Notes under the pieces: model-generated
The model's database searches: none
What the model saw: only the letters and a program-made list of their open reading frames with translations
What the model was told of the DNA's origin: nothing
Program-made: the position numbers and the translations under genes
Shown here: positions 13,394 through 32,626 of the stretch, piece after piece
Numbering within the stretch: the stretch's first letter is position 1
Layout of the letters: each line of letters starts with the position of its first letter
NCBI GenBank assembly: GCA_016177875.1
Contig: JACOUL010000008.1
Span: forward strand, 79,432-143,431
Reading direction: 5' to 3'
Length of the DNA stretch: 64,000 nt
Source: Burkholderiales bacterium
GTDB taxonomy: Bacteria; Pseudomonadota; Gammaproteobacteria; Burkholderiales; Burkholderiaceae_D

Positions 13394-13431
13394 ACGCCCC
13401 AGCCATTTATGCGATAATGCCGTCCTCTATC

Positions 13432-13506
13432 GGGCGGTTAGCTCAGCGGTAGAGCACTGCCTTCACACGGCAGGGGTCACTGGTTCGAACCCAGTATCGC
13501 CCACCA
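13432..13506 (+). tRNA. tRNA-Val (anticodon CAC)
   Basis: Manual cloverleaf: acceptor stem GGGCGGT/ATCGCCC; D-arm GCTC..GAGC; anticodon stem CTGCC/GGCAG with loop TTCACAC; T-arm ACTGG-TTCGAAC-CCAGT; discriminator A; encoded CCA. Confidence 0.85.
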
Positions 13507-13514
13507 AATAAATC

Positions 13515-13548
13515 AAGGCCTTACGAGTGATCGTTTGGCCTTTTTTTT
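13515..13548 (+). terminator. Rho-independent terminator downstream of tRNA-Val
   Basis: AAGGCC...GGCCTT hairpin followed by a T8 run. Confidence 0.5.
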
Positions 13549-13605
13549 ATACGTGGAATTTGGCACATAATTGGCACAACGAGGTTTTTCCTTGGAGATC
13601 CATTT

Positions 13606-13686
13606 ATGGCGAATATTCAGAAGCGTGGAATCTATTGGCGTGCCCAGGTTAGGCGTAAGGGCTATCCTCGTACGCGAGCTGGTTAA
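13606..13686 (+). pseudogene. Remnant of a tyrosine integrase (N-terminal ~26 codons only)
   Basis: MANIQKRGIYWRAQVRRKGYPRTRAG* resembles the arm-binding N-terminus of tRNA-associated phage/island integrases (M..IRKRG..WQAQVRRKG..). No integrase-like continuation in any frame downstream. Confidence 0.5.
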
Positions 13687-13893
13687 ACATGATTGGGCTT
13701 TGACGGACAAAGTGACGCTCGCGGGATTTCCAATTCATAAGTGGACGGATATACCGCGTTCACTTGATAAGAATGGTCAGCAGCGATTTGACCTATTCGC
13801 TTTTGTTTTGAAAGAGTATTCGTCGGCGGCCAATTTTTCGATCGGCAGATAGTGAATCTCGATCCGTAAAAAAGCAGGGATTTTGGAGGAGCG

Positions 13894-14256
13894 ATGTCCG
13901 AACAGACCAAAGTGCAGCCGAGCTTTCGAGTTCACTACGAGAAGCTCGATTCGCCTGTCCGATTAATGCAGGAATTGCGAAGTGATGTCAAATTTGATGA
14001 CGACGCCTTAAACAACTTCGTTTGGATGATTTGGCCAAAATTTGAATGCGAAATAGATTCGCCGATTGAAGAAGGCATTGAGGCCGCGCCAGTCGGAACT
14101 GCAGTGATGCTGATTCTTAATCAGAACCCAGACTACAGAGCCATGCTACGAACAAGATTAAAAATAGGCGCAACTGGTTATTTTGTCGGCGGCTCAATGA
14201 AAATCGCGAAATTTGAAATAACAGAATTGCTTGGGGACGAAGCAAAGGCAAAGTGA
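13894..14256 (+). CDS. Hypothetical protein (island)
   Basis: 120-aa ORF in the low-GC island. Overlaps the next ORF by ATGA. Confidence 0.5.
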   Translation: MSEQTKVQPSFRVHYEKLDSPVRLMQELRSDVKFDDDALNNFVWMIWPKFECEIDSPIEEGIEAAPVGTAVMLILNQNPDYRAMLRTRLKIGATGYFVGGSMKIAKFEITELLGDEAKAK

Positions 14257-14723
14257 TGAGAGTAGCTGTTGAAAACATATTGAAGGAGATGTTGTCTCCT
14301 CATGGCTTCAGCCTGAATGTGTCCAAGGAAGCCAGGGAATATGTTCGAGAAAGAGCAGGACTTCTGGAAATTGTCGGAACGCGCAAGAGTCGTAAAGTCT
14401 CCGGACAGACGGCGGTATATTTTTCAGTGGAGGGAGGAAATCTCGCCGAACCGCGGACTTATGAGATTTCCCACGTCGCTCCGTTCAAGAATACATGGTG
14501 GTGGTCAAAGGGTTCATCCGAAGTTGAATGGGCCGGGCTTAGGCAACAACTTAGCTCCGTAGTGCTGCCGTATCTGGTTTCGCACGAGTCCGAATTCGAC
14601 GAAGCGCAGGCCCGTGAAGACGTTCATCAAGGTTTGTCTTTCCTTAACGCGAGCAACCCTTCATTTGAAAAAGTTGAGAATGCATATTGGCGTAAGCGCG
14701 GCAGCATTATTGATATGCAGTAA
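14253..14723 (+). CDS. Hypothetical protein (island)
   Basis: 156-aa ORF, translationally coupled to the upstream ORF. No recognisable motifs. Confidence 0.5.
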   Translation: MMRVAVENILKEMLSPHGFSLNVSKEAREYVRERAGLLEIVGTRKSRKVSGQTAVYFSVEGGNLAEPRTYEISHVAPFKNTWWWSKGSSEVEWAGLRQQLSSVVLPYLVSHESEFDEAQAREDVHQGLSFLNASNPSFEKVENAYWRKRGSIIDMQ

Positions 14724-14907
14724 ACCATACTTGACCTGGTAACCTCTGTCCGCTTTCATCGCGCATTGAAACTAGCCGAGCTTCCGAGATCAGCGAATTT
14801 CGTTCGGTAAGGCAATTATGTTATAAATTCCTCGTGGCGGCGTGCCGCAGCGATGTTAGCTACTAAAATGGCGAACACGTCACTACGCTCGCAAGCCTTC
14901 GACGTGA

Positions 14908-15663
14908 TTGAACCAGCACGTTCGGCAAATAAGAAATTTGAATTACATGAATACGACTTGGTACGAAGACGCTATGCAGTCAAGAGAGGTCGCCTTAATT
15001 GCGCGTTTTGGCCCGTACTCTCCTGAAGACAAAGTCTTTAAGCCACAAAATCAAGCGCTGGAAACAGCAATTCCAGGATTTGCCTTTCTTCGCTTTCCAC
15101 CTTCCGAAGGGCGGCCTTTTTGGCTTTATATTACGCACGGATTATCTCAACCATCCGAACCTGAGGAAAGCGAAAAACGTGATCAAGAACGTCTTTCAGG
15201 TTTTGGCATCGAGTTTGCGCTAGCTACTAGAGTTGAAGAAGCATGGCCATTTACGATGTTAGAGGCTCTGACCTCATATGCACTTCAAGGTATAAAGCCA
15301 GTGCTTCCATGGGATCGCGTTCCCTCAAGTGACCTAATGGAGAACGCGCCAGGAGGCCACCTGCTTGCACTTCAGGCGCCCGGCTATGACACCCAGATAA
15401 TCACAGCCACAGGAAAATTTCATATTGTTCACCTTGTAGGTGTGACCTCTGCGGAGGTGACGAAAGCCAAACTGCGGCCCGGCGTAGAAGGGAGCAAAGC
15501 TCTAGAGTGCGTCCTCCATCGACTAAATGTGGGCTGTGTCACTGACAGGAAACGAGAATGCTTGACTGATTCCATGGAATTTGAGGCGGCATGGGTAGCT
15601 TGCAACGAACAGCCTGCGCTCATAAATGACGAAAAAAAGAAACCATTTTGGAAAATCTGGTGA
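14908..15663 (+). CDS. SUFU-like (Suppressor-of-fused family) protein, candidate polymorphic-toxin immunity protein
   Basis: PFWLYITHGLS, GFGIEFALAT and AWPFTMLEALTSYAL align with the conserved SUFU N-domain blocks (HWHYISFGLS / GFGFELTFRL / PTWPAELMQGLARY). The true start may be MNTTWYEDA at ~14947. Confidence 0.55.
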   Translation: MNQHVRQIRNLNYMNTTWYEDAMQSREVALIARFGPYSPEDKVFKPQNQALETAIPGFAFLRFPPSEGRPFWLYITHGLSQPSEPEESEKRDQERLSGFGIEFALATRVEEAWPFTMLEALTSYALQGIKPVLPWDRVPSSDLMENAPGGHLLALQAPGYDTQIITATGKFHIVHLVGVTSAEVTKAKLRPGVEGSKALECVLHRLNVGCVTDRKRECLTDSMEFEAAWVACNEQPALINDEKKKPFWKIW

Positions 15664-15677
15664 CGCTGTGACGGAGC

Positions 15678-16409
15678 ATGAAATTGATTAGTTGTTCATG
15701 GAGGACTGGCCCAGAATTGAACGCGAAAACTCTAATTTCACTAATCCTTTGTTGGTGCATCCCCGCAGCGAACGCTTTGGCGGATGAGTTTGGCGAAGTT
15801 CAGCAATTGGCGCGAGCCTTCTTTATACGCGCAGGCACCGTAGAAGGGGACATTCAGGGCGTATATCTCAATTCACTTTCGGGCGGTTTGCCAAACAGCA
15901 AAAACGTGGAACAGGTAGCAGACGTCGCATTCCGCGTACGCGGACAAGGCACGCGCTACGTGCAGCTCTTCCAAATAGCAGGCAAATGGCAAGCGCTACG
16001 CATGCTGCCAGCTAACCAGCTGGCAGCGGCTAATCCCCAATTGATTGAGGAGTATAGACACGAGTATTGGCGCGAGACGGCACGCATGGAGCAGCGCATT
16101 GCCGCAGACTTACAGACGAGGCTGATCGCCGAGAAGAAGATCGATGATGTCAAATTCGCTCGTCCGCGCTGCTTCGTCGACTTGAAACACAACAAAGCGC
16201 TCTGCGACATCTTTTACCAGACGTGGTTGAAGCCCGAGCCGCAGTGCACCAATGCGGCTCGGCTGTTCGCACGCCATAACGGACAGTGGAGTGAAATTTC
16301 TGGCAAATATCATTCGGGGAAGCGTATCAATCCGAACAACGGCGAGGTTTTCACCATGATCTCAGAGCGGGAGAGTGCCGAATTTTGTCAAGCAAAAGGG
16401 GCACCGTGA
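15678..16409 (+). CDS. Hypothetical secreted protein (island)
   Basis: 243 aa. Hydrophobic N-terminal segment ending ...PAANALA (signal-peptide-like). Confidence 0.45.
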   Translation: MKLISCSWRTGPELNAKTLISLILCWCIPAANALADEFGEVQQLARAFFIRAGTVEGDIQGVYLNSLSGGLPNSKNVEQVADVAFRVRGQGTRYVQLFQIAGKWQALRMLPANQLAAANPQLIEEYRHEYWRETARMEQRIAADLQTRLIAEKKIDDVKFARPRCFVDLKHNKALCDIFYQTWLKPEPQCTNAARLFARHNGQWSEISGKYHSGKRINPNNGEVFTMISERESAEFCQAKGAP

Positions 16410-16936
16410 ATAAATTTTTTGTACTCCTACTGGGGTTATTCGTTTTCTGTTCGGCCGGAGCACAATCTGCCATTTCCTCGGCGAGGAGAGAGCTTTCTCC
16501 CATGATTCACTTGGAAGTAAAACGCCTATCCTCTCAAGGCGATGCATTAACAAAAAAAGGGAGCTATGCTGAAGCTATAGAGACATACTGGAAGGCATGG
16601 GACTTATTGCCTGAGCCAAAACAAGAATGGGATGCAGGTTTATGGCTTTTGGCAGCAATTGGCGACGCGAACTTCTTGAATCGAGATTATGTTGCATGTC
16701 GAGACAATCTCTCAGTAGCTATGCATTTCAGCGGTGCCATTGGTAATCCCTTTTTACACCTTCGGCTGGGACAATGCCAGTACGAACTCGGCAACATGAA
16801 GCGCGCAGCGGATGAACTCGCGAGAGCCTACCTCCTCGAAGGGAAAAAGATCTTTAAGAACGATGATCCAAAATACTTGACATTTATTAAGTCGAAGCTG
16901 AAGCCACCGCCAGGTGGATGGCCAGAAGGATGGTGA
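16406..16936 (+). CDS. Hypothetical secreted protein with TPR-like helical repeats (island)
   Basis: GTG start preceded by AAGGGG. Signal peptide MNKFFVLLLGLFVFCSAGAQS. Helical repeat content (YAEAIETYWKAW...). Confidence 0.45.
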   Translation: MNKFFVLLLGLFVFCSAGAQSAISSARRELSPMIHLEVKRLSSQGDALTKKGSYAEAIETYWKAWDLLPEPKQEWDAGLWLLAAIGDANFLNRDYVACRDNLSVAMHFSGAIGNPFLHLRLGQCQYELGNMKRAADELARAYLLEGKKIFKNDDPKYLTFIKSKLKPPPGGWPEGW

Positions 16937-17441
16937 TAAATCAAAACTTCGAACGCCCGCTTCCCGAACGTCCGACCGATTAAAATGGGTCGAACTCGGA
17001 AGTTCGCAATCTGACACATCCTGTCGGGTCAAGTCACAGCTTATACAATTGATATTGTCGACGTAGAGTTTCTCGGCGACTCGCGGTTTGCATTTTTTTA
17101 CGCCTCTGTGTGGCACCGCTCTCTTGATCGTAGCGGTCCGATTTCCTGCCCAGATGATGTGACGCGAGCTGCGTCCCAGTCGCTGGGGATTGAAGCTGTA
17201 GATCCCGTTCCGTGTACTTCACTTTTCTATGTTGGCCCGCCAAGCGATGGCGTACTGATTCCTCAGTATGCGGCACTCGAATCTGTGGCCCTCAGTCACT
17301 TCGGGAAGATAACGAAGCCGATGGATGTGTGGGGGCAAATACGCCCTGAATTTCGATATATGTTTAAGATGCCGACATAATATCGTTGCTTTCGCCAGCA
17401 AACATGGCGGCAACCTAATAAGCTTAAACTAAGGGGGGCAC

Positions 17442-18125
17442 ATGCCACCGTCAATCTGCGTTACCAAGGATAAATTACTAGAGTATGTCGTTCTTGAAGA
17501 AGACGAGGATACCGCTGTCTTACTCAAAGCCTCAAGCTTCCTATACATTGGTGCCGCCGAAAAAGAACATATTACGTATCACTACTGGAGCTACCCCACG
17601 TCTTGCGGTGTCGCATGGGTCTCGTTTTCGACCGATCTTACTATGAGAACGGAGAGTGAAGTTCCGTCTCACATTCAGTGCGCAACTCGCTCTCGCGACG
17701 AACATCCCATAAAGCAGACTGCGCCTCGCCATAAAATTCCTGTCGACCGCACACCAATAGCGAAGCCAGTTTTGATTCCCTATATGCTGGCTCCGGTCTG
17801 TGATTATTACCCGGTTTGGAACGAGAATATTCCGTTCGAAAACGCGGCCAATGCGTTCGAGGCCAAGCCAGTAACGGCGAACGTGGGGTACGTAGAATTA
17901 TCTTTCTGCGTTAAATTGTCCAGCGGACGGTTTGCACAATTGACTGCCCCAGCCCATCAGTCAAGTTCAGTATCGATTTCGCTGGAAATGTTTGAAGACG
18001 CAAGAAGTCGGGAGGACGAGAACTGCATAGGTTTTGTGCACGTTCAAGACATTAAAGAAATATTGGCGGTATTAGGGCGTGAGTACGTTGCTCCAACGGC
18101 TCGATATCCTTATGAATGGCGATAG
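17442..18125 (+). CDS. Hypothetical protein (island)
   Basis: 227-aa ORF with GGGGG RBS. Low GC. Confidence 0.45.
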   Translation: MPPSICVTKDKLLEYVVLEEDEDTAVLLKASSFLYIGAAEKEHITYHYWSYPTSCGVAWVSFSTDLTMRTESEVPSHIQCATRSRDEHPIKQTAPRHKIPVDRTPIAKPVLIPYMLAPVCDYYPVWNENIPFENAANAFEAKPVTANVGYVELSFCVKLSSGRFAQLTAPAHQSSSVSISLEMFEDARSREDENCIGFVHVQDIKEILAVLGREYVAPTARYPYEWR

Positions 18126-18200
18126 CCAGTTGACAAAAGCCTTGAGCGCGAATCCTACCAGATTCGTATTGAGCGAAATTGCAAAGGCGGAGGAGCCGAA

Positions 18201-18683
18201 ATGCTTTCGTGGATAGAACAAATGATTGGTTTGACTCCTAAGGCCAAGGAAAAGGCCAAGCAAATGGAGCAGAAGGCAAATGAGCTTGCATTGGTGTTGC
18301 CTTATGTCGTAAATCGCCAAGTTCTCGCTCTGATTCCCAAAAAAAAATGCTTCGACTGGACGAATCAGTGGAATGAACGTTCCAAAGTGGAGCGCCCTTT
18401 GGATGTGGGCCGTGATCAATGGTCTTATACCCGGTTTTATCTGGTTCACGGACAACTCAAATCGGAAGATCTGCCAGCACTTATAGCGAAACATCGAAAA
18501 TATTTCCTGAAATCTTACGTTGATGGATATGCCCCAAAATCACTGTGGCCGTGGGCGCCGACGGAAGATGAGTTTTCAGAGTGGTACGACGCTGTGCTGA
18601 TTCCAGGAAACGTTCACGATCTCGACGAGTCCTTATTAGCCAAAGAGCCGGATATTCTTAAAGCAATAACCCACCAATTTTAA
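18201..18683 (+). CDS. Hypothetical protein (island)
   Basis: 160-aa ORF. No recognisable motifs. Confidence 0.45.
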   Translation: MLSWIEQMIGLTPKAKEKAKQMEQKANELALVLPYVVNRQVLALIPKKKCFDWTNQWNERSKVERPLDVGRDQWSYTRFYLVHGQLKSEDLPALIAKHRKYFLKSYVDGYAPKSLWPWAPTEDEFSEWYDAVLIPGNVHDLDESLLAKEPDILKAITHQF

Positions 18684-18690
18684 ATAATAA

Positions 18691-19302
18691 ATGCAGAGGC
18701 TATCAATGGAGATTTCCAAGCTAATCAAAAAGATAGATGCACTGCCAAAGAGTATGTATCTTGAGTTTGACGGCAAAACTTACAAGAAGACTTATAAGCA
18801 TACGTTTTCGCCAGGGCTAAATAAAAATGATGTTGTTCAGGAATTGCTCAGGCTTTGGGTGCCTTTAGATATTTTGGAAGAAGGATGGCAGGACCTCTAC
18901 CAAATTTCAAATGGAATTAAGCTGTTCCATAGCGAAAGTGAGGATGTAGATACCGGCGAATACTTTATTCCCTCCATAGAGCTACACCCTCTAGGCAGAT
19001 TGGCGGCTGAGACGGGTTATATGCAATCTGAAGTATTCCAGGAGATTGAAGATGGGGATGATCCCCCTGTTTATTCCAAAGGCGTAGCAATAGGAGAGGC
19101 GTGTGGGACAGGTAATCGTTTTATTCTGAATAGATGGGGTGAACTGTCAGGAAATATCATTTATGCGGACCATGATCCCGACATAAACGAATGGCATACA
19201 AAGGCGTTTTCGAGTTCGCTTGTCGATTTTCTCGAGCAATTATCGTCAGATCCGTTTTCCACTCTTAGTCGCATTAGTGGTGCAGATAAAGTTTGGTTTT
19301 GA
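18691..19302 (+). CDS. SMI1/KNR4 (SUKH superfamily)-like protein, candidate immunity protein
   Basis: VAIGEACGTGNRFILNRWGELSGNIIYADHD matches the SUKH signature (I..d.gGn...d....G.V...dHe). C-terminal SLVDFLEQL is also SUKH-typical. Confidence 0.55.
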   Translation: MQRLSMEISKLIKKIDALPKSMYLEFDGKTYKKTYKHTFSPGLNKNDVVQELLRLWVPLDILEEGWQDLYQISNGIKLFHSESEDVDTGEYFIPSIELHPLGRLAAETGYMQSEVFQEIEDGDDPPVYSKGVAIGEACGTGNRFILNRWGELSGNIIYADHDPDINEWHTKAFSSSLVDFLEQLSSDPFSTLSRISGADKVWF

Positions 19303-19368
19303 TGCTAATTCGAATGGGAAAAATGAAACGCCTGATTTGGCTCTGAATGAATTGAAAAAGGGTGAGGT

Positions 19369-21009
19369 ATGGGAGCGTGGGGAACCGGCATTCTGGATAA
19401 CGATACTGTTAGAGACGTAAGAGATCAGTACAGAGATCGGATAATTGCCGGTGACTCTGATGAAGGCGCAACAAACGAAATATTTCAGGAGTGGGGAAGC
19501 ATTTTCAATGAGGATGCGGACGGTGACGTATTGCTTGGGCTAACCTACGCCAAACTTGAAACCGGACGGCTAGATGCCGCCACAAAGGAAAAGGCAATTT
19601 CTTTTCTGGAAGGCGGCGGCGACCTCGATCTTTGGGACGAAAAGGCTAAAAAACGTAGAGCTGCGGTTCTTCAGAAATTTCTAGCAAAACTTCAAGCGGT
19701 CGATATTAAAAGCCAAAAGCCCAAAAAGCTTCGCGCACCATTTCTCGCGGAGTGTGATTGGCAAGAAGGGGAATACTTGGCATATCGCTTGTCTTCAGGC
19801 GAATATCTGGTTCTGGTGGTTATCTTGTTGGTCAATGATGTGTCTATGGGCACATTTCCATCCGTTGGCATAATCGGTAGAACTTTCTCCTCTATAGATT
19901 CTTTAGATGACATTGACTTGCTTCCATTGGCGCCTTGCTCACTTAGTCCAAGTGGAGTCGAGCGGTTTCACATCTATGAGGAGCGACATGATCGAATACC
20001 GCATGACCGGGTCGTTCGGCTAAACAAAAAAAGAAATATTACCGCCGATATGAAGTCGGGGACGCATGGTGGGACATTTTGGGTCTCTTTGGAAAAGTAC
20101 ATTCACCAATACAGATTTCCCGATACCCCTGGGGTAGTGAGCCTTGGTGATCGCTTTGCTCCGGATACCTTTGGAGGCGTTATCGGTGTCTTGCGCAACA
20201 CTCAGTTTTCTGTTGAAGCCAGAACTCAACATCCGCTTGCAGGCTTTCAACAAAAATCCGTTGGAATTAGTGATGGCAAAACACCGGGAGCGATATATCA
20301 AACAATGCTCGCGAATATGGCGCTTGGCCATTGGGACAAAAGTCTTAGTTTAATTAGTGAACTCAAGCAACTTCTGCCGAAGGAAAACATGCAGTTTGAT
20401 TTGGCGATACGCGAGGCACAAGCTAATTTGCAAAAAGGTCTTCCTTTAGATGAAATAGTCAAGAGTTTAGAAGCCTGGCAGAAAAATGAAAATGTCATCG
20501 GTTTAGGTATGTATGAGGTGCGGCTAAGTGCTCTCTATTTCATAAATGGTGATTTTCAAAAAGGTTTGGCCCTTCATAGGGCTGCAATCGACTTAGGAAA
20601 GCATGACAGCATGAAGTGGCTTGATCTCGCTTTAGCTGAAGCTCAGTATGGGGATCTCGCAGCGACTGAAGATTCTTTAAGCCATGTAGAGATCAATCAG
20701 GTTGCAAATTTCGCGTTGCCATTTCTGAGTTGGGCAAGGGGTATTGTTGCATTTGGAAAGGGACAACACGCAGTCGCTTCAATGTACTTCCTTAATGCCA
20801 TAGGTCCGATATTGGCGCGTCGAACAAATCCCACAATTTGGAGTTTATTAGCGCTAATTTCTGGTTGGAGTGCACTCACATTAAAGGCGCAAGGACTAGG
20901 CGACGAAGCTAAAGCACTTACCCAAGCTGTATGGCCGGTATTAAAAGTACAGGGTTCGAAGAAATTGTTGGCATCGTTGAGCGAGGGCCAATTGACCGGA
21001 ATTATGTAG
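19369..21009 (+). CDS. Large hypothetical protein with DUF4259-like N-terminus and helical C-terminal region
   Basis: N-terminus MGAWGTGILDNDTVRDV is characteristic of DUF4259 proteins. The remaining ~430 aa are helical-repeat-like. Confidence 0.5.
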   Translation: MGAWGTGILDNDTVRDVRDQYRDRIIAGDSDEGATNEIFQEWGSIFNEDADGDVLLGLTYAKLETGRLDAATKEKAISFLEGGGDLDLWDEKAKKRRAAVLQKFLAKLQAVDIKSQKPKKLRAPFLAECDWQEGEYLAYRLSSGEYLVLVVILLVNDVSMGTFPSVGIIGRTFSSIDSLDDIDLLPLAPCSLSPSGVERFHIYEERHDRIPHDRVVRLNKKRNITADMKSGTHGGTFWVSLEKYIHQYRFPDTPGVVSLGDRFAPDTFGGVIGVLRNTQFSVEARTQHPLAGFQQKSVGISDGKTPGAIYQTMLANMALGHWDKSLSLISELKQLLPKENMQFDLAIREAQANLQKGLPLDEIVKSLEAWQKNENVIGLGMYEVRLSALYFINGDFQKGLALHRAAIDLGKHDSMKWLDLALAEAQYGDLAATEDSLSHVEINQVANFALPFLSWARGIVAFGKGQHAVASMYFLNAIGPILARRTNPTIWSLLALISGWSALTLKAQGLGDEAKALTQAVWPVLKVQGSKKLLASLSEGQLTGIM

Positions 21010-21061
21010 CAGCCGCACAAAGCGTTTTATATCAATAGCTTACTGAGTTTTTCCGCATAGC

Positions 21062-21101
21062 CAATCAGTTGGAGGAAAAATTCGCAAATTCTCAAAACTT
21101 C
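21062..21101. terminator. Imperfect hairpin between convergent genes (candidate bidirectional terminator)
   Basis: GTTGGAGGAA...TTCCTCTAAC 10-bp stem (1 mismatch) with ~20-nt loop. Confidence 0.25.
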
Positions 21102-21103
21102 CT

Positions 21104-21628: not shown

Positions 21629-21633
21629 TTGAA

Positions 21634-21912: not shown

Positions 21913-21952
21913 GTTATCGCTCGTTATTCAATTTAAAGGAATCTGACTACGT

Positions 21953-22590: not shown

Positions 22591-22646
22591 ATTTTCACCT
22601 ATGCGCAGTGTTATAGGCGCCAATGTCAGTTTATGCCGGCTGCCGG

Positions 22647-25600
22647 TTATGCCGCAAGCTTGCCTGATTTGATCGGAGGATGATTGATCCGCTCAAATAG
22701 CGTTTCAAGCTTATCCGAAATCTCCTGCCTGGTCTCCTTGATTTCCGCCAGCAGGCCAGCTACTCGCTGTTCCTCCTTGACGAGTAAGGCAAGCGCTTTT
22801 TCTGCCAATTCCGGTGTTTCTGGAATCAGGGGCTTTGCCTGTTCTATCTCACCAAGCGTTGTCCCTTCCGGGAAGGTCTGGAACTGCCGGCGCAGCCATT
22901 CAATTGCCAGTTCCGGCTCAGAGGGAGCGATTTGCGCAACTTCCTGCTTGCCCGAGAATAGCCGATGACCACTGCGTACCAGCTTATGCACTTTCGCACT
23001 CGGCATAGAAATATGCAGCCCCCATTTGACACGAGCACGATCAATCGAAAGCCCTGGAATGTTCGCCGGGATATTCGCTGGCGCTTGCGCCATGCTGTCA
23101 TCAATTCTCCAGCCTGCTTTGCGCAGTGGCAGAAGCATCTTTTGAATGCCACTGGCCCGTTGCGCAAGTTGCGCAATAGCCGCCATGACTGCCGGATCGT
23201 CTGGAATGGGAATCGAAATCTGCCGAAGATCGTCTGGCTGCAAGCGTCCGGCGATGGCGCTGCGGTTGACGCCATCCAGCAAGGCGCGCATCTGCTGGCT
23301 ATTCAGGAACGCCAGCACATACCAAGGATCGATCTTGGCCGAATCTGTTTCCAGCATCTCGCGAATCGGTGCGCGATGATCGAGTTGGTTGCGAATCGAC
23401 TTGTTATCTACGCCTGCGAGATGACACCAGCGCATCAACAAAAACACGGAATGATTGCACTTTAAGAATCCGCCATCGTCCCAAGTGCCATCGTCATAGG
23501 CAAAGCCGCCGAATTCCGCGACCATCAGCTTGGGGCGGTCGTACAATTCGGGGAAGGTCGGACGCCTGACTTGTGCCGGTACTCGCGTTCCAGACCCGTA
23601 TTCCAGGTAGCGTACATTGATGATGCCGAAATAATCGACATCCTTGCTTCCAGCAAATGGCGCTGGATGCGCTGAATCCATTTGATCGGCTATCAGATCA
23701 TCAATCGTAAAGGCTCCTTTATTGGTTTTTTCATTCGCGTTGAGAACCATGCCTACGGAAATGTAAAAAATGTCCTCTAATGGGATCGCCTTCACGTTAT
23801 GCGCCAATGTCAGCGTCGGCAATTCCTGCCTAAATACGCTAGTCTTGTAATGCGATTGCCGCAGGTTCTGGCTGCGAGCGTGCGACAGGCTGCCCCACTT
23901 GGGCGCGGTCTCGTGCCAGAAGCGTTCCGTATGCGTGTGGCCAGTCGGCGGTCGGTTCGTGGCAACAGTAATGGTGTTTTGCACCATCGCGTCTTCAAAC
24001 AGTTTCACGCCGGGGAAGAAATGCACTTCATCGACTGTGGCGCGATTGACGAATAATTCACGCAAGCCATCGCAATAGGGCACGGTCTCGATGGCATTGC
24101 TGGTGATGATTGCCATTTTTCCCGCCTTGCCATGTTCGGATTCCTGCTTGAGCAGGTTGAGACTGGCCGCAACGAACGGCACGAACAAATCCCACTTGAG
24201 AACCATTGTGCTGCGCACGGCTTCGCTCGGATATTCCCGCTTGATGCGGTCACGATAGGAAAGCATCGCGTCGCTTTCGTTCGCCTTGACATAAGGCGGA
24301 TTGCCGACGACGAAATCGAATTTGTCCCTCCATTGCCCGATACCCGCCTTGATTTGATCTTCCTTCGGTAAATCTTCATCGGGGAATGGCAATGTCCCGG
24401 CCTGGCTTGCCAGCGTATCGGCGCTGAACGACAGGCTATCGGAGTTATAGATATGGAAGCGTTCGATCGTCGCTGGCTGATCGCCCTTGTGCGCAATGCT
24501 GAACAGGTCAATCACCTGAATCAGCAAGTTGGTTTCCGCCAATGAGCATGCGAAGGGGTTCAGATCGACGCCATGCAGACAATCCCTGATTTCATTCAGA
24601 ACGGTTTGCACTTCCTCGGCTGGCACGTGGCTATGCCCGCGCCCACGCCAGTATTCCCGATAGGCGCTGACCAGGCGGGTTGCCGCTTCGACGAGGAAGC
24701 CGCCAGAGCCGCACGACAGGTCAATCAGCTTCTTGCCGATGATGTCCGTTCCCTTATAGCCGATACGATCTAGCATAAAGGAGACAACATCAGGCGACGT
24801 GAAGTACATCCCGCTTTCATGCTTATGCTTGGCTTCGACGTACTGGTTATAGACGGTGCCAATGATGTCTCGGTTGATGTTGCTGAGATCGAAACCGGCA
24901 AGCTTATGTAATACCCGTACTACCGCATTCCGGTCAGGAATATACCAATCCAGGACGGTGCGCTCTGCGAAGAAATGCGCGTAGATGTGTTGTGCGGAGG
25001 TATACGCCAATTCAAGCAGGAAGTCGGCGCTGCGGCCCATTGCATGCTCCAGGTAGTGCGATTCCACTTGCCTGAACCAAAGCGACACGCCGCCGTTGGT
25101 GAACATCCGGTTGACCAGCCCCTTGTCTTCCATGATGCGCACCAGGAGGATACGGATGATGACCAGGTACGCCGTCTGCGCCAGGAATTCACGCCGCAAC
25201 AATTTGGCGTCGTCGGACTGAAACACGAGAGAAGCAGTCTTCTCTTTCCAAGTCTCGATATGGTGATAGACCTTGATACTCGCCTTGTGTTGCGCCTCCA
25301 GCTTGGTGAGATAACGGTAGCGCTTTTCCGTATAAGCACGAATCCGACTAATTAGAACGTAAATAGGGTCGCGGTCTGTGCCTTTCCCGGATTTGATCGC
25401 ATGCAGGGCATAGAGACGCCGCTCAATCTGCTTTAACTCGCCCATCAAGACATCGCCGTGCATGATTTTGCGCAGCAAGCCTTCATCGTATTCCTTGGTC
25501 TCTTTATCGGCAGCCACCATCAATTGCATGGCGGTTTGAATGAGATTGTCTTCCTGTTCTTGGAGCGTCGTGTTCTCAGTTGGTATCTTCTTCGAAGCAT

Positions 25601-26282
25601 CCTTGTACGCATTGAAATCCGTCTCGACTGCGGCAAGCTGTGCGTCGGCATCATCCTCGAATTCCGAAATCAGTTCCTTGATGGCTTCGGTAAGCTGATC
25701 GGCGTTGTCATGGGTGACGGGGACGATGCGCAGGCGGCAGTATGTGTTTGTCCACGTCTTACCGTTTGGCTTGTGAGGCTTGTTATTCCCAGTCTCATTT
25801 TGAAGCGTCAAATCGTCGATGAGATTGCGTAGGCTTGCAAAGCTGCCGCGCTGGAAGCGGCGCCACAGCGCAGAGAATCGCGCAATGAAGCCACATGCAT
25901 CCAGGGCGTCGATCTTGGATTTTCCGCTGGCGAGTATATCGCCGCCCGTCCATGCATGAACCGCCTGCGCCAAGGGAATTTCGATTGCGGGCGTGTGCAG
26001 ACCGCCTTCCATTTGGTCATAAACTAGAATCGCATGGCCGTTGACGAGCATGCCGCGTGAGGCGCCGAATTGCGTCATGTAGCCTTGCAGTTGCGGACGG
26101 TGATGACGAAGGTCTAGGGCGGCCGTATTTTTATCTTCGACGATAAAGCATGCCTGGCGCGGGTATTCATCTATCTTGATGACGAAATCGGGGCGCTGCC
26201 GACCGGCTTGGGCATTGTATTCGTATTCTTGCTTGCTGTAGCCGAGCGCTTCAATCAGTAAAGCCGTGATGCGCATGTCCAC
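22647..26282 (-). CDS. Type IIG restriction-modification fusion enzyme (MmeI-like: N-terminal PD-ExK endonuclease + gamma-class N6-adenine methyltransferase + target-recognition domain)
   Basis: N-terminus RPDFVIKIDEYPRQACFIVEDK (D...ExK). Methyltransferase motif I DLSCGSGGFLVEA. Motif IV VVGNPPYV. ~400-aa C-terminal region. No helicase motifs and no brx/pgl neighbours. Start is GTG 26282 or ATG 26276; an in-frame TGA lies just upstream. Confidence 0.75.
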   Translation of the reverse strand: MDMRITALLIEALGYSKQEYEYNAQAGRQRPDFVIKIDEYPRQACFIVEDKNTAALDLRHHRPQLQGYMTQFGASRGMLVNGHAILVYDQMEGGLHTPAIEIPLAQAVHAWTGGDILASGKSKIDALDACGFIARFSALWRRFQRGSFASLRNLIDDLTLQNETGNNKPHKPNGKTWTNTYCRLRIVPVTHDNADQLTEAIKELISEFEDDADAQLAAVETDFNAYKDASKKIPTENTTLQEQEDNLIQTAMQLMVAADKETKEYDEGLLRKIMHGDVLMGELKQIERRLYALHAIKSGKGTDRDPIYVLISRIRAYTEKRYRYLTKLEAQHKASIKVYHHIETWKEKTASLVFQSDDAKLLRREFLAQTAYLVIIRILLVRIMEDKGLVNRMFTNGGVSLWFRQVESHYLEHAMGRSADFLLELAYTSAQHIYAHFFAERTVLDWYIPDRNAVVRVLHKLAGFDLSNINRDIIGTVYNQYVEAKHKHESGMYFTSPDVVSFMLDRIGYKGTDIIGKKLIDLSCGSGGFLVEAATRLVSAYREYWRGRGHSHVPAEEVQTVLNEIRDCLHGVDLNPFACSLAETNLLIQVIDLFSIAHKGDQPATIERFHIYNSDSLSFSADTLASQAGTLPFPDEDLPKEDQIKAGIGQWRDKFDFVVGNPPYVKANESDAMLSYRDRIKREYPSEAVRSTMVLKWDLFVPFVAASLNLLKQESEHGKAGKMAIITSNAIETVPYCDGLRELFVNRATVDEVHFFPGVKLFEDAMVQNTITVATNRPPTGHTHTERFWHETAPKWGSLSHARSQNLRQSHYKTSVFRQELPTLTLAHNVKAIPLEDIFYISVGMVLNANEKTNKGAFTIDDLIADQMDSAHPAPFAGSKDVDYFGIINVRYLEYGSGTRVPAQVRRPTFPELYDRPKLMVAEFGGFAYDDGTWDDGGFLKCNHSVFLLMRWCHLAGVDNKSIRNQLDHRAPIREMLETDSAKIDPWYVLAFLNSQQMRALLDGVNRSAIAGRLQPDDLRQISIPIPDDPAVMAAIAQLAQRASGIQKMLLPLRKAGWRIDDSMAQAPANIPANIPGLSIDRARVKWGLHISMPSAKVHKLVRSGHRLFSGKQEVAQIAPSEPELAIEWLRRQFQTFPEGTTLGEIEQAKPLIPETPELAEKALALLVKEEQRVAGLLAEIKETRQEISDKLETLFERINHPPIKSGKLAA

Positions 26283-26623
26283 GATACTGGCTTCATCGCC
26301 CGTTCGCTGTTCGGGCGGCGTGGAGAGATAGGCGTTTAGATTTCCCTCAGTGCTAAAGCTCGGGCTGGCGAGATGGCCCAGGAAGCGGTCGAGGAACTTT
26401 TCAAATGACGCATCTGTCGAAGGCTGCTGGCTGCTGGCTCATGCTATCGCCGCTCTCATTTTTATCCATCAGTTTTCCTCTAAGCGATTCATTTTTTGCT
26501 GAGCATCTTCATGCCATCCGGGAAGGGCACGAAGCTCGGCGCGTTCTTCTTTAATGAATTTGGGTTGGATAGTAAGACTTTTGCTGCAACTTCAAATTTG
26601 ATTTTGAGCCGCAGAATTTTCCG

Positions 26624-27217
26624 TTATCGAGAAGGCCCAATATCTTTAGATTGATTCAGTGACAGGACTTTGCCATCACCATCCCCGTTATAAGTAATTT
26701 CAACACTGGCGCCAACCGCCGGAATGCAATCCAACTTGCCTACATGATGCGCGACTAATTTTCCTCTTCCCGTATCTTGTAAGACGCGATCAGGCGTTGT
26801 CGCACTGACGATCTTCCCAATATAGGTACGGCCTGGTTGTGCCTCTGGAATGGCCTCATCCTGCATTGCCTGTTCGCTTTGCAAAGCGGGCAGTTGCTTC
26901 AATAAGTCAGGCAGCGCTTTTTGCACTGTGTCCCATACCACATCAAGATTGATATCGAAATATCCATGAGCGATACGGTTGCGCATGCCGCGCATGCTAC
27001 GCCAGGGTACTTCTGCGTGTTGATTGGCAAATTCGGCATACTCTCCCATCACCTTGGTCGCGGCCTCGCCAATGATGATAAGACTCATGACCACGGCTTG
27101 TTGCGTCCGCTTGTCGGCCATGAATTCGCTTTTACTCAGGCCGGCAACGAAGCTGCACGCATCCGATGCGGCTTGCTGCATGTGGTCGATATAGTCGGGA
27201 AGGCGGTTCTCGCTCAT
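26624..27217 (-). CDS. hepT: HepT-like (DUF86) RNase toxin with ~70-aa C-terminal extension
   Basis: R-x4-H-x-Y motif (RNRIAHGYF) inside a HepT-like N-terminal ~120 aa. The extra C-terminal segment (TYIGKIVSATTPDRVLQDTGRGKLVAHH...) is of unknown family. Overlaps mntA by 4 nt. Confidence 0.7.
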   Translation of the reverse strand: MSENRLPDYIDHMQQAASDACSFVAGLSKSEFMADKRTQQAVVMSLIIIGEAATKVMGEYAEFANQHAEVPWRSMRGMRNRIAHGYFDINLDVVWDTVQKALPDLLKQLPALQSEQAMQDEAIPEAQPGRTYIGKIVSATTPDRVLQDTGRGKLVAHHVGKLDCIPAVGASVEITYNGDGDGKVLSLNQSKDIGPSR

Positions 27218-27504
27218 ACCGGCTTTGCTTCTGCAAGCACCTTGGCCCGAAATTTCGCTGGCAAGTCTGCCGGCGTTAAAAGATCAACGTGGACGCCAAG
27301 CAAATCTTCGAGTTCGGCTTGCAAACCACCCAAATCGAACAAGGTTGCGCCAGGAAGGGCATCTACGAGAATATCCAGATCGCTATTGTCGCCATCTGTG
27401 CCGTGCAATGCTGATCCAAAGACACGCGGATTGACGGCCCGATAGCGTGCAGTAACGGCTCGAATGGCCTCACGCTTTTTTTCCAGAATGATGGATGGTC
27501 TCAT
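27214..27504 (-). CDS. mntA: MntA-type nucleotidyltransferase antitoxin
   Basis: GSALHGTDGDNSDLDILV: minimal nucleotidyltransferase G-S-x9-13-D-x-D motif. Classic MntA-HepT pairing. Confidence 0.75.
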   Translation of the reverse strand: MRPSIILEKKREAIRAVTARYRAVNPRVFGSALHGTDGDNSDLDILVDALPGATLFDLGGLQAELEDLLGVHVDLLTPADLPAKFRAKVLAEAKPV

Positions 27505-27528
27505 ACGCTTTCCATGTCGGTTCCGGTA

Positions 27529-27822
27529 TCAGGAGTTTTGCTGCAATTCCAAATCGGTTTTGGATCCGCCGAACTTCCCTTTCGCCGCGCCGCCACGCGG
27601 CTTGCTTGCTTCGAATTCAATTCGGCTGAGCGTTGCGCGAAAATCGAGGCCAGCCTCTGCCATATCGCCCATCAGCGCGGCGACAATCGCCAGATGAGGC
27701 GGCACCTCTCCCTGCGTGGAGTAGTTCGTGATGGAGTTGGGCGTTTGCTTGATCAGGTCGGCAAAGGCTTTGATGGTCAATCCCGCCTTGCCAAGCTGAC
27801 GCCGAAATTCTTCATAGGTCAT
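27529..27822 (-). CDS. Small HTH DNA-binding protein upstream of mntA-hepT
   Basis: XRE-like HTH (LGKAGLTIKAFADLIKQTPNSITNY) and a lysine/glycine-rich tail. 24-nt gap to mntA on the same strand. Confidence 0.5.
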   Translation of the reverse strand: MTYEEFRRQLGKAGLTIKAFADLIKQTPNSITNYSTQGEVPPHLAIVAALMGDMAEAGLDFRATLSRIEFEASKPRGGAAKGKFGGSKTDLELQQNS

Positions 27823-27849
27823 ATCTTCATCATATCAGCTGGATGGAGA

Positions 27850-29070
27850 AAATCACATCAATAGACAAGTTATGCACATTAAAAAATGCGTTAAATACTG
27901 CAAATAATGTGCTTTTCACTTGAAACACATAATTCTATGTGTATAATGAACACATAATTTGATGTGTTTCTCCGGCGAATGTCTCATAAACAACACTTCC
28001 TGCTCTCTGCCAAAGCCCGCACGCTGTCCGTGCGGCAGGTGTTTGAGCTGACGGAAGCTCAAGCCTTTGAGACGTTCAAGGAAGTGCGTTGGGGAACGGG
28101 CAATGTCACATGCCCTTGCTGCGGATCGGTATCGAAGCACTATTTCATCCGCGTGCGCCGCCAATGGCGGTGCCGTGATTGCAACCATACGTTCTCGGTC
28201 ACGTCGGGCACCATCTTCGCCTTCCATAAGCTCTCGCTGAAGGTCTACCTGGCTGCCATTGCGATCTATACCAATGCGGTCAAGGGCATCTCTGCCTTGC
28301 AACTCGGCCGCGATCTCGGCGTGCAGTACAAGACGGCATTCGTGCTGGCGCATAAAATCCGTGAGTCCTTGATGGAGCAGCGCGACGAAGCGCAATTGTC
28401 CGGCGAAGTGCAGATCGACGGCGCCTATGTGAACGGCCATATCCGGCCCAGGAACAAGAAGGCAGACCGGATCGATCGTCGTTTAGCCATCCATCAAAGA
28501 GCCAGCAAGCGTTGCGTGCTGGTCTATCGCCAAAAAGCGCTTCCGGCCGCATTACAGGCTGCCATCAACGACAATGAGGGTAAGGATGAGCCGATCGTCT
28601 CTGGAGCCAACAAGACCATTACATTCGTCGTGAAGGCCGAGAACCAGGCCGATATCGTCAGCTTGACGGATCGCGTGGTGAAACGTGGCAGTATCGTATG
28701 CGCGGATGAAAACTCGGCTTACGATCCTTTGCACGCTCGGTATGACACGCGCCGCGTGAATCATCAGATTGAATACGCCGCCGATGACGGCACCACCAAC
28801 AATCTTGCGGAAAGCTACTTTGCGCGTTTCCGCCGCATGCAACTCGGCCAGATGCATAAATTCGGCAATCTCTATCTGGACAACTATGCCAACGAGGCGG
28901 CGTATCGCGAGGATACGCGCCGCTGGTCGAACGGAAAAATCTTTACCGACATCCTAACCAAGTGCATGCGCACCCGCACGCATCACGACTGGTGCGGCTA
29001 CTGGCAGGGGAATAAGCGCCAGTCCGAACGGCTGGCGGCGTAGACGACCATTAAATTGCCAGGGATAGTG
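27850..29070 (+). mobile_element. IS1595-family insertion sequence (ends approximate)
   Basis: Single transposase ORF preceded by an AT-rich leader carrying a TATAAT box and short inverted repeats (GAAACACAT...ATGTGTTTC; ACACATA-ATTC-TATGTGT). Terminal IRs and target duplications could not be delimited by eye. Confidence 0.45.
27964..29043 (+). CDS. IS1595-family transposase
   Basis: N-terminal transposase zinc ribbon (CPCCGS...CRDCNH) and a DDE_Tnp_IS1595-type core (LAAIAIY...QIDGAYVNG...VCADENSAYD). Confidence 0.8.
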   Translation: MFLRRMSHKQHFLLSAKARTLSVRQVFELTEAQAFETFKEVRWGTGNVTCPCCGSVSKHYFIRVRRQWRCRDCNHTFSVTSGTIFAFHKLSLKVYLAAIAIYTNAVKGISALQLGRDLGVQYKTAFVLAHKIRESLMEQRDEAQLSGEVQIDGAYVNGHIRPRNKKADRIDRRLAIHQRASKRCVLVYRQKALPAALQAAINDNEGKDEPIVSGANKTITFVVKAENQADIVSLTDRVVKRGSIVCADENSAYDPLHARYDTRRVNHQIEYAADDGTTNNLAESYFARFRRMQLGQMHKFGNLYLDNYANEAAYREDTRRWSNGKIFTDILTKCMRTRTHHDWCGYWQGNKRQSERLAA

Positions 29071-29079
29071 GCGCAGAAT

Positions 29080-29571
29080 TCATTTCCACAGTTCTCTGCG
29101 TGTGGCGCCCAGCTGGTCTGCCAAATGCGCGACGTGAGACCAAATAGCAGATGGCGGCATACGCTCAAGCTGCGCCGTCTCCTCCACTGCCATGACAACG
29201 ATCGGTATCGGCGTCTCGTCAATGAAATGAGCAATAGTGGCCTCACATCCAACAGGGATTTGCCCAGTTGCCAGCGCCTTCCGAAGCATTTCTTCAGACA
29301 GCTTATGTTTGTAGCTAACACTTGAAGTATTAGCGGCCATCCACAGGCCGGGCTTCTTCTCCCGTGCCGCGATTGATGGCCCGTCGATGGTCAATCCAAG
29401 AACATTCAGTATGCGTAATAGACGATTAAAGCTTAGATCCTCGATCGTGCCAGCCTCCAACCGCTGCACCGTTTGGCGCGACAAGTTAGCCAGGCGCGCG
29501 AGGCGCACTTGCGTCAGGCCGACCGCCTTGCGGCGAGCCTGGATATCCTTGCCGATCGTTTGAATGTACAT
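29080..29571 (-). CDS. XRE-family HTH protein with ~100-aa C-terminal domain (island regulator or antitoxin-like)
   Basis: N-terminal HTH_XRE (GLTQVRLARLANLSRQTVQRLEAG). C-terminal domain not recognised. Confidence 0.5.
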   Translation of the reverse strand: MYIQTIGKDIQARRKAVGLTQVRLARLANLSRQTVQRLEAGTIEDLSFNRLLRILNVLGLTIDGPSIAAREKKPGLWMAANTSSVSYKHKLSEEMLRKALATGQIPVGCEATIAHFIDETPIPIVVMAVEETAQLERMPPSAIWSHVAHLADQLGATRRELWK

Positions 29572-29652
29572 TGCCGGTTCCCCTCAAAGGTACAATATAT
29601 TGTACTTTCCGTAATGTGTTTTTGAACGATAGGCAGTCGATTGTGCCGAGTC

Positions 29653-30090
29653 TCAGTTCAGCTTCCACTTCAACGCTTCGCCATCTTTTTTCACTTGCTT
29701 TACCGTCTTATTCTTCTCCAACCGATACAAAATCGCGAGGACATTCTTTTGAATGCGCGCCGTAACTTCGGCGTCGGCATCAATGCCTTTGCGTTTCAGG
29801 AGTGCGTCGGTAATCTCCCGGCTGCATACCAAGCCTTTCGCGTCGCGCATCGTCTCCAGCGTCATGCGCTGCGCTTCACCCTTGATGAAATATTGATTGC
29901 GCCTGCGACGTGCGCGCGATTTAATCTGCCGAAGATCGACATCAGGCGCAAAGAGCTTTATCGTACTGTCCAGGTGCGATAATGCCGCTTGTAAATGCTT
30001 GATTTCGGTTTGGTAGGATTCGATTTGACCGGCGATTTCGCTGCGCTTGGCAACGAGGCCGGATACGACATGCGATTGCGCCATGTGCAT
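29653..30090 (-). CDS. Hypothetical basic protein with a predicted coiled-coil (island)
   Basis: 145-aa ORF with a heptad-rich N-terminus and a basic stretch (RARRRRNQYF). Family not recognised. Confidence 0.4.
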   Translation of the reverse strand: MHMAQSHVVSGLVAKRSEIAGQIESYQTEIKHLQAALSHLDSTIKLFAPDVDLRQIKSRARRRRNQYFIKGEAQRMTLETMRDAKGLVCSREITDALLKRKGIDADAEVTARIQKNVLAILYRLEKNKTVKQVKKDGEALKWKLN

Positions 30091-30333
30091 TCCCTTTCAT
30101 GTTGGTCATGAAGGAATGGTAGGCATTAGTTCACAGAAGAGCTTGTGCGGTTGCTACATAATTCCGCAATTGACCCCATTGGGTTGAGACTAACGATAAA
30201 TTCAGATGGCACAAATCTGGCACAGTTGCCGTTAAATATTGCGGGATCTTGCGGTACGTATTCAGCGTTGAAGTTATTGATTAATAATGGTATTTTTAAG
30301 TACCTCGTTGATTTTAAATGCCTTAATTTTGTT

Positions 30334-30378
30334 TTCACACGGCAGGGGTCACTGGTTCGATCCCAGTATCGCCCACCA
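30334..30378 (+). repeat. 45-bp direct repeat of the tRNA-Val 3' end (island right-hand att site)
   Basis: TTCACACGGCAGGGGTCACTGGTTCGATCCCAGTATCGCCCACCA equals tRNA positions 13462-13506 with a single mismatch (A->T in the T-loop). Confidence 0.85.
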
Positions 30379-30383
30379 CATTC

Positions 30384-30412
30384 AAAGCCCTGCGAATTTT
30401 CGCGGGGCTTTT
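30384..30412 (+). terminator. Hairpin plus T-run after the right-hand repeat (likely the original tRNA terminator)
   Basis: AGCCCTGCG-AATTTT-CGCGGGGCT stem (1 mismatch) followed by TTTTTCATTT. Confidence 0.4.
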
Positions 30413-32578: not shown

Positions 32579-32626
32579 CAACTATTCATTACACCGCCCC
32601 GGCCGCTCTGGCCGGGTTTTATTTAC

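Follow-up and report, generated by a model that had tools for sequence, protein, structure and literature searches.

Cis-mobilisable elements (CIMEs) are integrated elements that have lost their integration and transfer genes and keep their attachment sites, attL and attR; some are mobilised by integrative and conjugative elements (ICEs) (PMC6323972). The known ones are mainly derivatives of Firmicutes ICEs that were shown to be mobilised by accretion (ICEberg 2.0, PMC6323972). Here we describe a CIME-like island in a 64,000-nucleotide stretch (hereafter the window) of contig JACOUL010000008.1, from an uncultured soil or groundwater betaproteobacterium. The interval 13507-30378 is very probably a genomic island that a tyrosine recombinase inserted at tRNA-Val(CAC) beside dnaQ, and that has lost its integrase and kept its att sites (coordinates of all features are collected in Table 1). 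An integrase-less tRNA island is a common and well-understood genome feature, and the current understanding of islands is unchanged by this one. What it offers is an apparently clean example of an island turning non-autonomous by a single deletion and, for annotation, a Burkholderiales hot spot, dnaQ–tRNA-Val(CAC), tied to a ~340-aa integrase family whose attP layout can be recognised. Potentially new biology is confined to the cargo, to an immunity-like gene array and a VbhA-like/DEDDh pair.

The target tRNA gene is intact and is the sole tRNA that ARAGORN finds in the window; between 13300 and 30600, Rfam detects no other RNA family. Its 3′ part, from the anticodon loop to CCA, recurs at the far end of the island, so that the insertion lies on the 3′ side of the tRNA and is flanked by a repeat of the tRNA 3′ part, the register that is classical for tRNA-targeting tyrosine integrases. 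The two copies are identical at 44 of 45 positions, the sole mismatch being A at 13489 versus T at 30361; their start-to-start spacing is 16,872 bp and their longest exact identity is 27 nt. Because the bases just upstream differ (cc at the proximal copy, tt at the distal one), the repeat is exactly 45 nt long and starts at base 1 of the anticodon loop (ttcacac). In 100 dinucleotide-preserving shuffles a second match to the 45-mer never arose. An original prediction, made from the letters of this DNA alone, had proposed an island at tRNA-Val bounded by a 45-bp direct repeat with one mismatch, and both proposals stand. It had also named an observation that would speak against it, the repeat as part of a duplicated tRNA elsewhere; no third copy of the tRNA or the repeat, even a degenerate one, was found in the 64 kb with a 25-nt probe or by short-word BLAST with the whole tRNA.

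Neither ARAGORN nor Rfam recognizes a second tRNA at the distal copy, which is directly followed by a strong intrinsic terminator; the right flank begins at 30379, directly after the attR core, with CATTCAAAGCCCTGCG. Most simply, the distal fragment would be the displaced 3′ end of the host tRNA. At the variant T-loop position the closest relatives have T (TTCGATC in one locus, L083, and TTCAATC at the Noviherbaspirillum loci), and the TTCGAAC of the functional tRNA in the window is found in other Burkholderiales lineages. If the 3′ part of the present tRNA came from the element, the crossover would therefore lie 5′ of 13489. The functional tRNA is followed by an interrupted hairpin with a T8 run that may serve as an element-borne terminator of the rebuilt gene, and clear hairpin and T-run terminators stand at the corresponding place in three relatives (L092, from Ralstonia; L027, from Pandoraea horticolens; and L094).

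Beside the proximal att site, 100 nt after the tRNA, lies an integrase remnant without a catalytic domain. The original prediction described it as a 26-codon N-terminal stub. An open reading frame (ORF) of 26 codons is indeed present, but only 21 of these are integrase-homologous: the homology is restricted to codons 1-21 and ends at 13668 (breakpoint 13668/13669), and junction sequence makes up the final five codons together with the stop. A chimeric query, made of the stub and the body of a Pandoraea integrase, retrieved 2605 proteins with PF00589; they are some 340 aa long and come from Ralstonia, Burkholderia, Paraburkholderia, Cupriavidus and others. Among 120 listed family proteins, 59 could be aligned in register with the stub, and 13-16 of the 21 residues are identical in these (one exception has 11); identity to the integrases of L027, L092 and L094 is 71-76% over the 21 aa. 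All consensus positions of MA.I.KRG.YWRA.[IV]RR.GYP are conserved in the stub. In the family the consensus is followed by xQxRT and, in the members examined, by F.TK; the stub departs after P21. A start codon and ribosome-binding site are still present. Judged by this homology, the 26-codon ORF is a true remnant of the ~340-aa Burkholderiales tyrosine-integrase family, in line with the earlier view of an integrase reduced to its N terminus. The proposed search for the missing body, a tblastn run that used the integrases of Pandoraea and N. autotrophicum as queries, gave nothing beyond the stub anywhere in the 64 kb; the C-terminal Phage_integrase catalytic domain that marks the family is absent from the window. 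Domain scans of the predicted island proteins likewise gave no integrase body, relaxase or type IV secretion system (T4SS) domains, and the DDE transposase of an IS1595-family element is the only recombinase in the island.

Intact members of the integrase family occupy the same position in other genera. In Ralstonia (L092 and L093), dnaQ and tRNA-Val(CAC) are followed by an integrase of the same family 153 nt downstream on the same strand. In Pandoraea horticolens an ORF that begins VASISKRGNYWRAFVRRKDYP and carries a Phage_integrase domain starts 154 nt after the dnaQ-linked tRNA-Val. This Pandoraea integrase (11237-12268 of L027), the closest to the stub, is apparently frameshifted near its C terminus and shows no family resemblance after LHFH; the Pandoraea element may thus also be decaying. 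The Ralstonia and Pandoraea islands resemble the island in the window in their target tRNA, gene order, strand and layout of terminator, 7-mers and int, and differ in that they keep the integrase body and carry unrelated cargo. The layout common to these relatives is a hairpin and T-run, then two 7-mers whose starts lie 11 nt apart, then the int start; the 7-mer pair is TGGTGCAaaagTGGTGCA in Ralstonia, TGGTGCAaaagCGGTGCA in Pandoraea and, in L094, TGGCGCAaaagTGGCGCA.

The island has such a pair near each end. The left pair, TGGCACAtaatTGGCACA, is matched in motif, spacing and strand by a right pair, TGGCACAaatcTGGCACA, 110 nt inside the right end. TGGCACA-N4-TGGCACA occurs exactly twice in the 64 kb, once inside each island end, and at a tolerance of two mismatches the expected number of 7-mer pairs is 0.4. 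The 7-mers of the relatives, which co-vary as pairs at the left-end position, are TGGTGCA and TGGCGCA, versus TGGCACA in the window. We infer that the integrase bound the pairs as arm-type sites, one pair on each arm of a single attP; if this is correct, both ends would belong to one element whose att sites are structurally intact.

The dnaQ–tRNA-Val junction is widespread, with tRNA-Val(CAC) directly downstream of dnaQ in 22 of the 30 Burkholderiales loci scanned. In a protein search the closest DnaQ sequences (83-89% identical) came from Noviherbaspirillum and allied uncultured Oxalobacteraceae; a contig scan with DnaQ gave 75% identity at best, with flanks that were not syntenic. In Noviherbaspirillum sp. 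UKPF54 the genes run SLT, gloB, methyltransferase, rnhA, dnaQ, tRNA-Val, a 45-aa ORF, a YgiQ-type radical SAM gene and minEDC, that is, the site is empty. N. autotrophicum, to which UKPF54 is a sister strain, has the same gene order with a 2,287-bp insert after tRNA-Val (10777-13110 of L087), which lies between the copies of a perfect 47-nt repeat in the matching register and contains a P4-like integrase together with phage head-completion and connector remnants. Like our island, this insert lies at tRNA-Val, has its repeat in that register (anticodon stem/loop to CCA) and is a decayed remnant; it differs in that its P4-like integrase has an Arm-DNA-bind_3 domain, is intact, and sits on the other strand at the distal end, and in its phage head-tail remnants. 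At L083 the tRNA-Val site is differently occupied. Because the site is empty in UKPF54 and occupied in N. autotrophicum, Ralstonia and Pandoraea, it is a recurrent integration hot spot. The island's contents are not shared among these loci: none of the 84 related loci queried has homologs of the 20 island proteins used as queries, and in tblastx comparisons of the island with the tRNA-Val-downstream regions of L010, L027, L083, L092 and L094 the stub alone is shared.

These comparisons bear on another account, in which the 45-mer would be left over from a tRNA duplicated locally, or would be a pseudogene, and no mobile element was involved. Nothing speaks for it but the fact that a partial tRNA copy exists, and we regard it as extremely improbable: the repeat has the same extent, anticodon loop to CCA, as the perfect 47-nt repeat around the integrase-bearing insert of N. 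autotrophicum, a remnant of a tRNA-Val-associated integrase lies 100 nt from the tRNA, matched 7-mer pairs stand at both ends, and the contents are foreign.

Composition gives a more differentiated picture. The island was predicted to have visibly lower GC content than its flanks. It does lie below the backbone as a whole (Table 1), but the contrast on the left, where GC is 0.62-0.66, is due to a separate 8.5-kb segment. As rnhA and dnaQ are 66-93 nt apart in the Noviherbaspirillum relatives, this GC-rich left flank is itself a second, repeat-less insertion, and GC contrast alone can thus mislead. Backbone chunks of equal size gave tetranucleotide correlations (r) of 0.91-0.96, which served as the null range. 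The computation, proposed as a check on the prediction, marks 13.5-21 kb as foreign and 21-30.3 kb as marginal: clearly foreign composition is confined to the left part, where GC is 0.46-0.49 (0.47 over 13.5-21 kb) and r ranges over 0.33-0.58.

This unevenness is one ground for considering a composite island, built by tandem accretion of two or more successive elements that possibly include 30379-34830, in which the low-GC 13.7-21 kb would be a later arrival that destroyed int, and the block of hypothetical genes right of attR an older island whose own repeat has decayed. Three compositional segments can be told apart (GC 0.46-0.49 with r 0.33-0.58; GC 0.52-0.53 with r 0.88; and region E with GC 0.556), the MVP/SPFH-like gene right of attR has only 33 homologs, of which the nearest are 47-54% identical, and is shorter than they are, and the right flank of the relatives (YgiQ, minCDE) is not in the window. 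Region E is nevertheless within the backbone range of composition, there is one partial tRNA copy only in the 64 kb, the identical 7-mer pairs at both ends argue for one element, and the boundaries of the low-GC block, at 13669 and about 21050, show neither repeats nor microhomology of at least 9 nt. Accretion, which would be compatible with a single repeat-bounded insertion at tRNA-Val, is thus possible but on balance rather unlikely.

Independent assembly supports the interval itself. In the Logan assembly of SRR12113422, three contigs are 100% identical to the window (11969-13459, 13482-30362 and 30349-35059). The island was assembled independently from repeat to repeat, since a single 16,881-bp Logan contig, checked from both ends, spans 13482-30362. 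The breaks between contigs were considered as evidence of excision and rejected, the tRNA sequence being shared across species in the metagenome.

Several points weigh against an integrase-less tRNA island as we describe it. The right 9.3 kb lie just below the null range and are nearly backbone-like. The empty-site comparison that had been suggested could be made at genus level only, where UKPF54 is empty; a site with the window's own right flank was not seen, as the right flank (30.4-64 kb) is non-syntenic with the genus-level relatives and YgiQ and minCDE are absent from it. For this reason the ancestral junction is reconstructed from the repeat rather than observed, and an exact search of JGI metagenomes gave no match to the attR/right-flank junction. 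The function of the 7-mers as arm sites is that of candidates, and the loss of mobility is likewise deduced from the gene content. Finally, the source is a metagenome-assembled genome, and the join between left flank and island is supported by the original assembly only, because the Logan contigs break inside the tRNA.

The last point raises the question of an assembly chimera joined at the conserved tRNA-Val, with the left flank from one organism and the island and right flank from another. Such an origin would fit the metagenomic source, the Logan contig ends at 13459, 13482, 30362 and 30349, all within a tRNA shared among species, and a T-loop A in the functional tRNA that is typical of other Burkholderiales lineages. 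We consider it very unlikely, as the left core genes (1-4100 and dnaQ) and the 29 kb on the right share a tetranucleotide signature (r 0.942), both repeat copies carry the unusual acceptor 3′ strand GTATCGCCC, which pairs with the 5′ half found here, and the longest exact identity of the copies, 27 nt, is below read length. A chimeric left join would, moreover, still leave a repeat-bounded insertion at tRNA-Val.

An integrated and later disabled element could have arisen as follows. The attP of the element would have included the tRNA sequence from the anticodon loop through to CCA, and a crossover in or near the anticodon loop would have restored a functional tRNA that owes its 3′ part, its terminator and its T-loop A to the element, displacing the original 3′ end, with its T-loop T, 16,872 bp downstream. 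The integrase would have belonged to the ~340-aa Burkholderiales family that repeatedly occupies dnaQ–tRNA-Val. A later deletion or replacement would then have taken int after codon 21, and the core sites and both 7-mer pairs would have survived this loss; a 7.4-kb immunity-like block of alien composition now adjoins the stub. In this account the direction and site of the crossover, the sequence of events and the lost mobility are all inferred. The distal core shows no decay beyond one difference, which probably predates integration, and the stub keeps its start codon and ribosome-binding site, which points to a recent loss in a single step rather than to erosion. The word 'degraded', used of the island before, would thus stand for one clean deletion or replacement and not for gradual decay, with cores 44/45 identical and the 7-mer pairs intact.

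By its sequence, the element is non-autonomous and CIME-like. Integration and transfer genes are lost, and attL and attR appear to be retained, as cores and matched 7-mer pairs. It departs from the CIMEs described so far in that no remnant of a relaxase, oriT or T4SS was seen in the island and a 21-codon int remnant persists. That it is 'probably immobile' can be upheld insofar as no recombinase for autonomous excision is present; non-autonomous is the better term, since an integrase could act in trans. The evidence speaks neither for nor against 'domesticated', the other word used in the prediction. A cognate integrase, with its recombination directionality factor, might be supplied from another part of the genome or by an incoming element and excise or co-mobilise the island, as described for CIMEs, in which case both words would be wrong; the near-identical cores, the exact and matched 7-mer pairs and the large, common Burkholderiales integrase family would all suit such mobilisation. 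It seems doubtful all the same: there is no second integrase in the 64 kb, the 7-mers differ between elements (TGGCACA, TGGTGCA, TGGCGCA), so that a helper might need matching specificity, and three Logan assemblies contain no attP or attB junction contig, although assembly graphs break at the tRNA regardless.

Table 1 Features of the tRNA-Val(CAC) island and its surroundings (window coordinates; r, tetranucleotide correlation)
Feature	Position	Strand	Evidence or remarks
Backbone	1-4100 and 34.8-64 kb		GC about 0.55; r 0.94 between the two parts
Nitronate-monooxygenase-like gene, 397 aa	873-2066		
rnhA	3627-4055		
GC-rich left-flank segment	4106-12600		GC 0.627; r 0.895 versus 34.8-64 kb
dnaQ (DNA polymerase III epsilon)	12683-13393	+	Pfam RNase_T 1.6e-35
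Promoter-like site before tRNA-Val	13390-13418		
tRNA-Val(CAC), intact, T-loop TTCGAAC	13432-13506	+	ARAGORN; Rfam tRNA 67 bits
attL core, proximal copy of 45-bp direct repeat (anticodon loop to CCA)	13462-13506	+	
Whole island	13507-30378		GC 0.503; r 0.83 versus combined backbone
Left part of island	13.5-21 kb		GC 0.46-0.49; r 0.49 versus 34.8-64 kb
Interrupted hairpin and T8, putative element-borne terminator of rebuilt tRNA	13515-13548	+	Read from sequence
Left-arm 7-mer pair, candidate arm-type integrase binding site	13561-13578	+	
Integrase stub, 26 codons, MANIQKRGIYWRAQVRRKGYPRTRAG*	13606-13686	+	Homology to integrases
Nine low-GC genes (120 aa, 155 aa, SUFU, 230 aa, TPR, 227 aa, 160 aa, 198 aa, 546-aa fusion)	13894-21009	+	
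SUFU gene	14947-15663	+	Pfam SUFU 9.8e-13, 48.8 bits versus cut-off 25
TPR gene	16502-16936	+	Pfam TPR, below cut-off, best E 2.2e-05
546-aa two-module fusion	19369-21009	+	1643 homologs
Right part of island	21-30.3 kb		GC 0.52-0.53; r 0.906 versus 34.8-64 kb
DEDDh exonuclease	21104-21628	-	Pfam; PADLOC DEDDh
92-aa ORF	within 21104-22623	-	
Rv2179c-like DEDDh exonuclease, 152 aa	21953-22411	-	Pfam
VbhA-like small protein	22408-22590/22623	-	Pfam
Eco57I-type gamma N6-adenine methyltransferase, 1209/1211 aa, Type IIG-like restriction–modification	22647-26282	-	Pfam Eco57I 3.7e-18, N6_Mtase 7e-12
HepT	26624-27217	-	Pfam HepT-like 1e-27, KfrB 1.4e-11
MntA	27214-27504	-	Pfam NTP_transf_2 3.6e-9; PADLOC PDC-S09 1.3e-27
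97-aa HTH-like protein	27529-27822	-	Weak HTH_3, E 0.03; called in Logan contig
Palindrome with 21-nt arms, GAAACACATAATTCTATGTGT / ACACATAATTTGATGTGTTTC	27922-27970		
IS1595-family transposase, full length	27964-29043	+	Pfam DDE_Tnp_IS1595 1.5e-42, Zn_ribbon_IS1595 6e-16
HTH_3 regulator	29080-29571	-	Pfam HTH_3 1.8e-11
145-aa protein, function unassigned	29653-30090	-	
Right-arm 7-mer pair, motif, spacing and strand as left pair	30207-30224	+	
attR core, displaced 3′ part of ancestral tRNA, T-loop TTCGATC	30334-30378	+	
Strong intrinsic terminator, 12-bp stem and T-run, directly 3′ of displaced tRNA end	30384-30411	+	
Block of genes right of attR	30506-34509		
MVP-shoulder/SPFH-like gene, 384 aa	31424-32578		
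Anaerobic-respiration cluster	34512-64000		

The cargo falls into two parts. For the right part, the original prediction had listed a Type IIG restriction–modification (R-M) enzyme, MntA/HepT, exonucleases, an IS1595 transposase and regulator-like genes, and domain matches were obtained for every item named (Table 1). The adjacent nucleotidyltransferase and HEPN/HepT genes overlap by 4 nt, the arrangement of an MntA/HepT toxin–antitoxin pair. At its C terminus HepT additionally has a KfrB domain (residues 131-184); as this domain is associated with plasmids, HepT-KfrB may be a fusion made by deletion. The methyltransferase matches PglX, MTase_II and REase_MTase_IIG in PADLOC through its methyltransferase core only, its PDB matches are to methyltransferases only, and all NCBIfam PglX models of bacteriophage exclusion (BREX) score below cut-off on it. 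Its translation contains an N-terminal PD-x16-EDK motif at residues 31-51 of the 1209-aa enzyme, a candidate PD-(D/E)xK nuclease motif, from which a Type IIG R-M enzyme is a plausible assignment.

VbhA normally acts as the antitoxin of a FIC toxin. The gene for the VbhA-like protein overlaps that for the Rv2179c-like DEDDh exonuclease by 4 nt, and there is no FIC gene. The two could form an uncharacterised toxin–antitoxin or defence pairing. Defence islands are groups of anti-phage systems on DNA that is, or once was, mobile. With the Type IIG-like R-M enzyme, MntA/HepT (PADLOC candidate system PDC-S09) and DEDDh nucleases within 6.5 kb on an integrated element, the island resembles them; it differs in having two recognisable systems only and in that half of it is without a match in the defence databases.

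The left part is a same-strand array of nine small genes, the calls for which were taken from the Logan contig. Seven of the nine, like the 145-aa gene at the right end, have no match in PADLOC, NCBIfam, PHROGs or a permissive Pfam search, and a single-sequence AlphaFold model of a 203-aa protein reached a pLDDT of 34. The two modules of the 546-aa protein are widespread and stand apart in many genomes: residues 1-245 correspond to proteins of about 250 aa, and residues 310-540 to the TPR-like C-terminal part of proteins of about 370 aa. Two of its homologs have weak, sub-threshold matches to DUF4259 and SMI1_KNR4. The protein begins MGAWGTGILDND, a sequence that is presumably DUF4259-like.

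For bacterial SuFu proteins a role in immunity within polymorphic toxin systems has been proposed (PMC3113570). The left array recalls the SUKH/SuFu immunity arrays of such systems (PMC3113570) in its nine small same-strand genes, the presence of SUFU and TPR, the absence of an adjacent toxin and its location on mobile DNA; it differs in that SUFU alone passes a curated threshold, the other genes being without such a match, and in having no toxin partner and no recombinase-associated repeat structure. On a speculative and unlikely reading, the genes of 13.9-21 kb would confer orphan immunity to interbacterial toxins and would share a mobilisable, integrase-less chassis with anti-phage defence. 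If it were true, the array would parallel, in a betaproteobacterium, the acquired interbacterial defence clusters.

Around the IS1595-family transposase, inverted-repeat searches gave neither terminal inverted repeats nor a target duplication. The palindrome just upstream of the transposase gene overlaps the best promoter-like site. No relatives of the right-end genes turned up among viral contigs, and the island has no match to plasmids by megablast.

The flanks show further accessory genes. The nitronate-monooxygenase-like gene lies between the SLT transglycosylase gene and gloB, where relatives have a spacer of about 200 nt. The 8.5 kb between rnhA and dnaQ encode an outer-membrane efflux protein, an AcrB-type RND pump, a membrane-fusion protein, MarR, YCII and an extracytoplasmic function (ECF) sigma factor with DUF6596. 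Right of attR follow genes for an 80-aa CxxC protein, a 162-aa protein, the MVP-shoulder/SPFH-like protein, a DUF3592 protein, and proteins of 87 and 333 aa; this block is possibly an older accessory region, though its composition is backbone-like. The 33 homologs of the MVP/SPFH-like protein were found among 5.8 billion proteins, the named ones being from Chloroflexi and Elusimicrobia (nearest 47-54% identical), and the protein in the window is about 80 aa shorter than its homologs. The remainder of the window is an anaerobic-respiration cluster with DUF2249, qNor, NsrR, Dnr/Crp, UbiU/UbiV-like U32 peptidases, SCP2 (UbiT-like), NrdD, HemN, two NarK-type major facilitator superfamily (MFS) transporters and NarG, which occupies the place of YgiQ and minCDE in the relatives.

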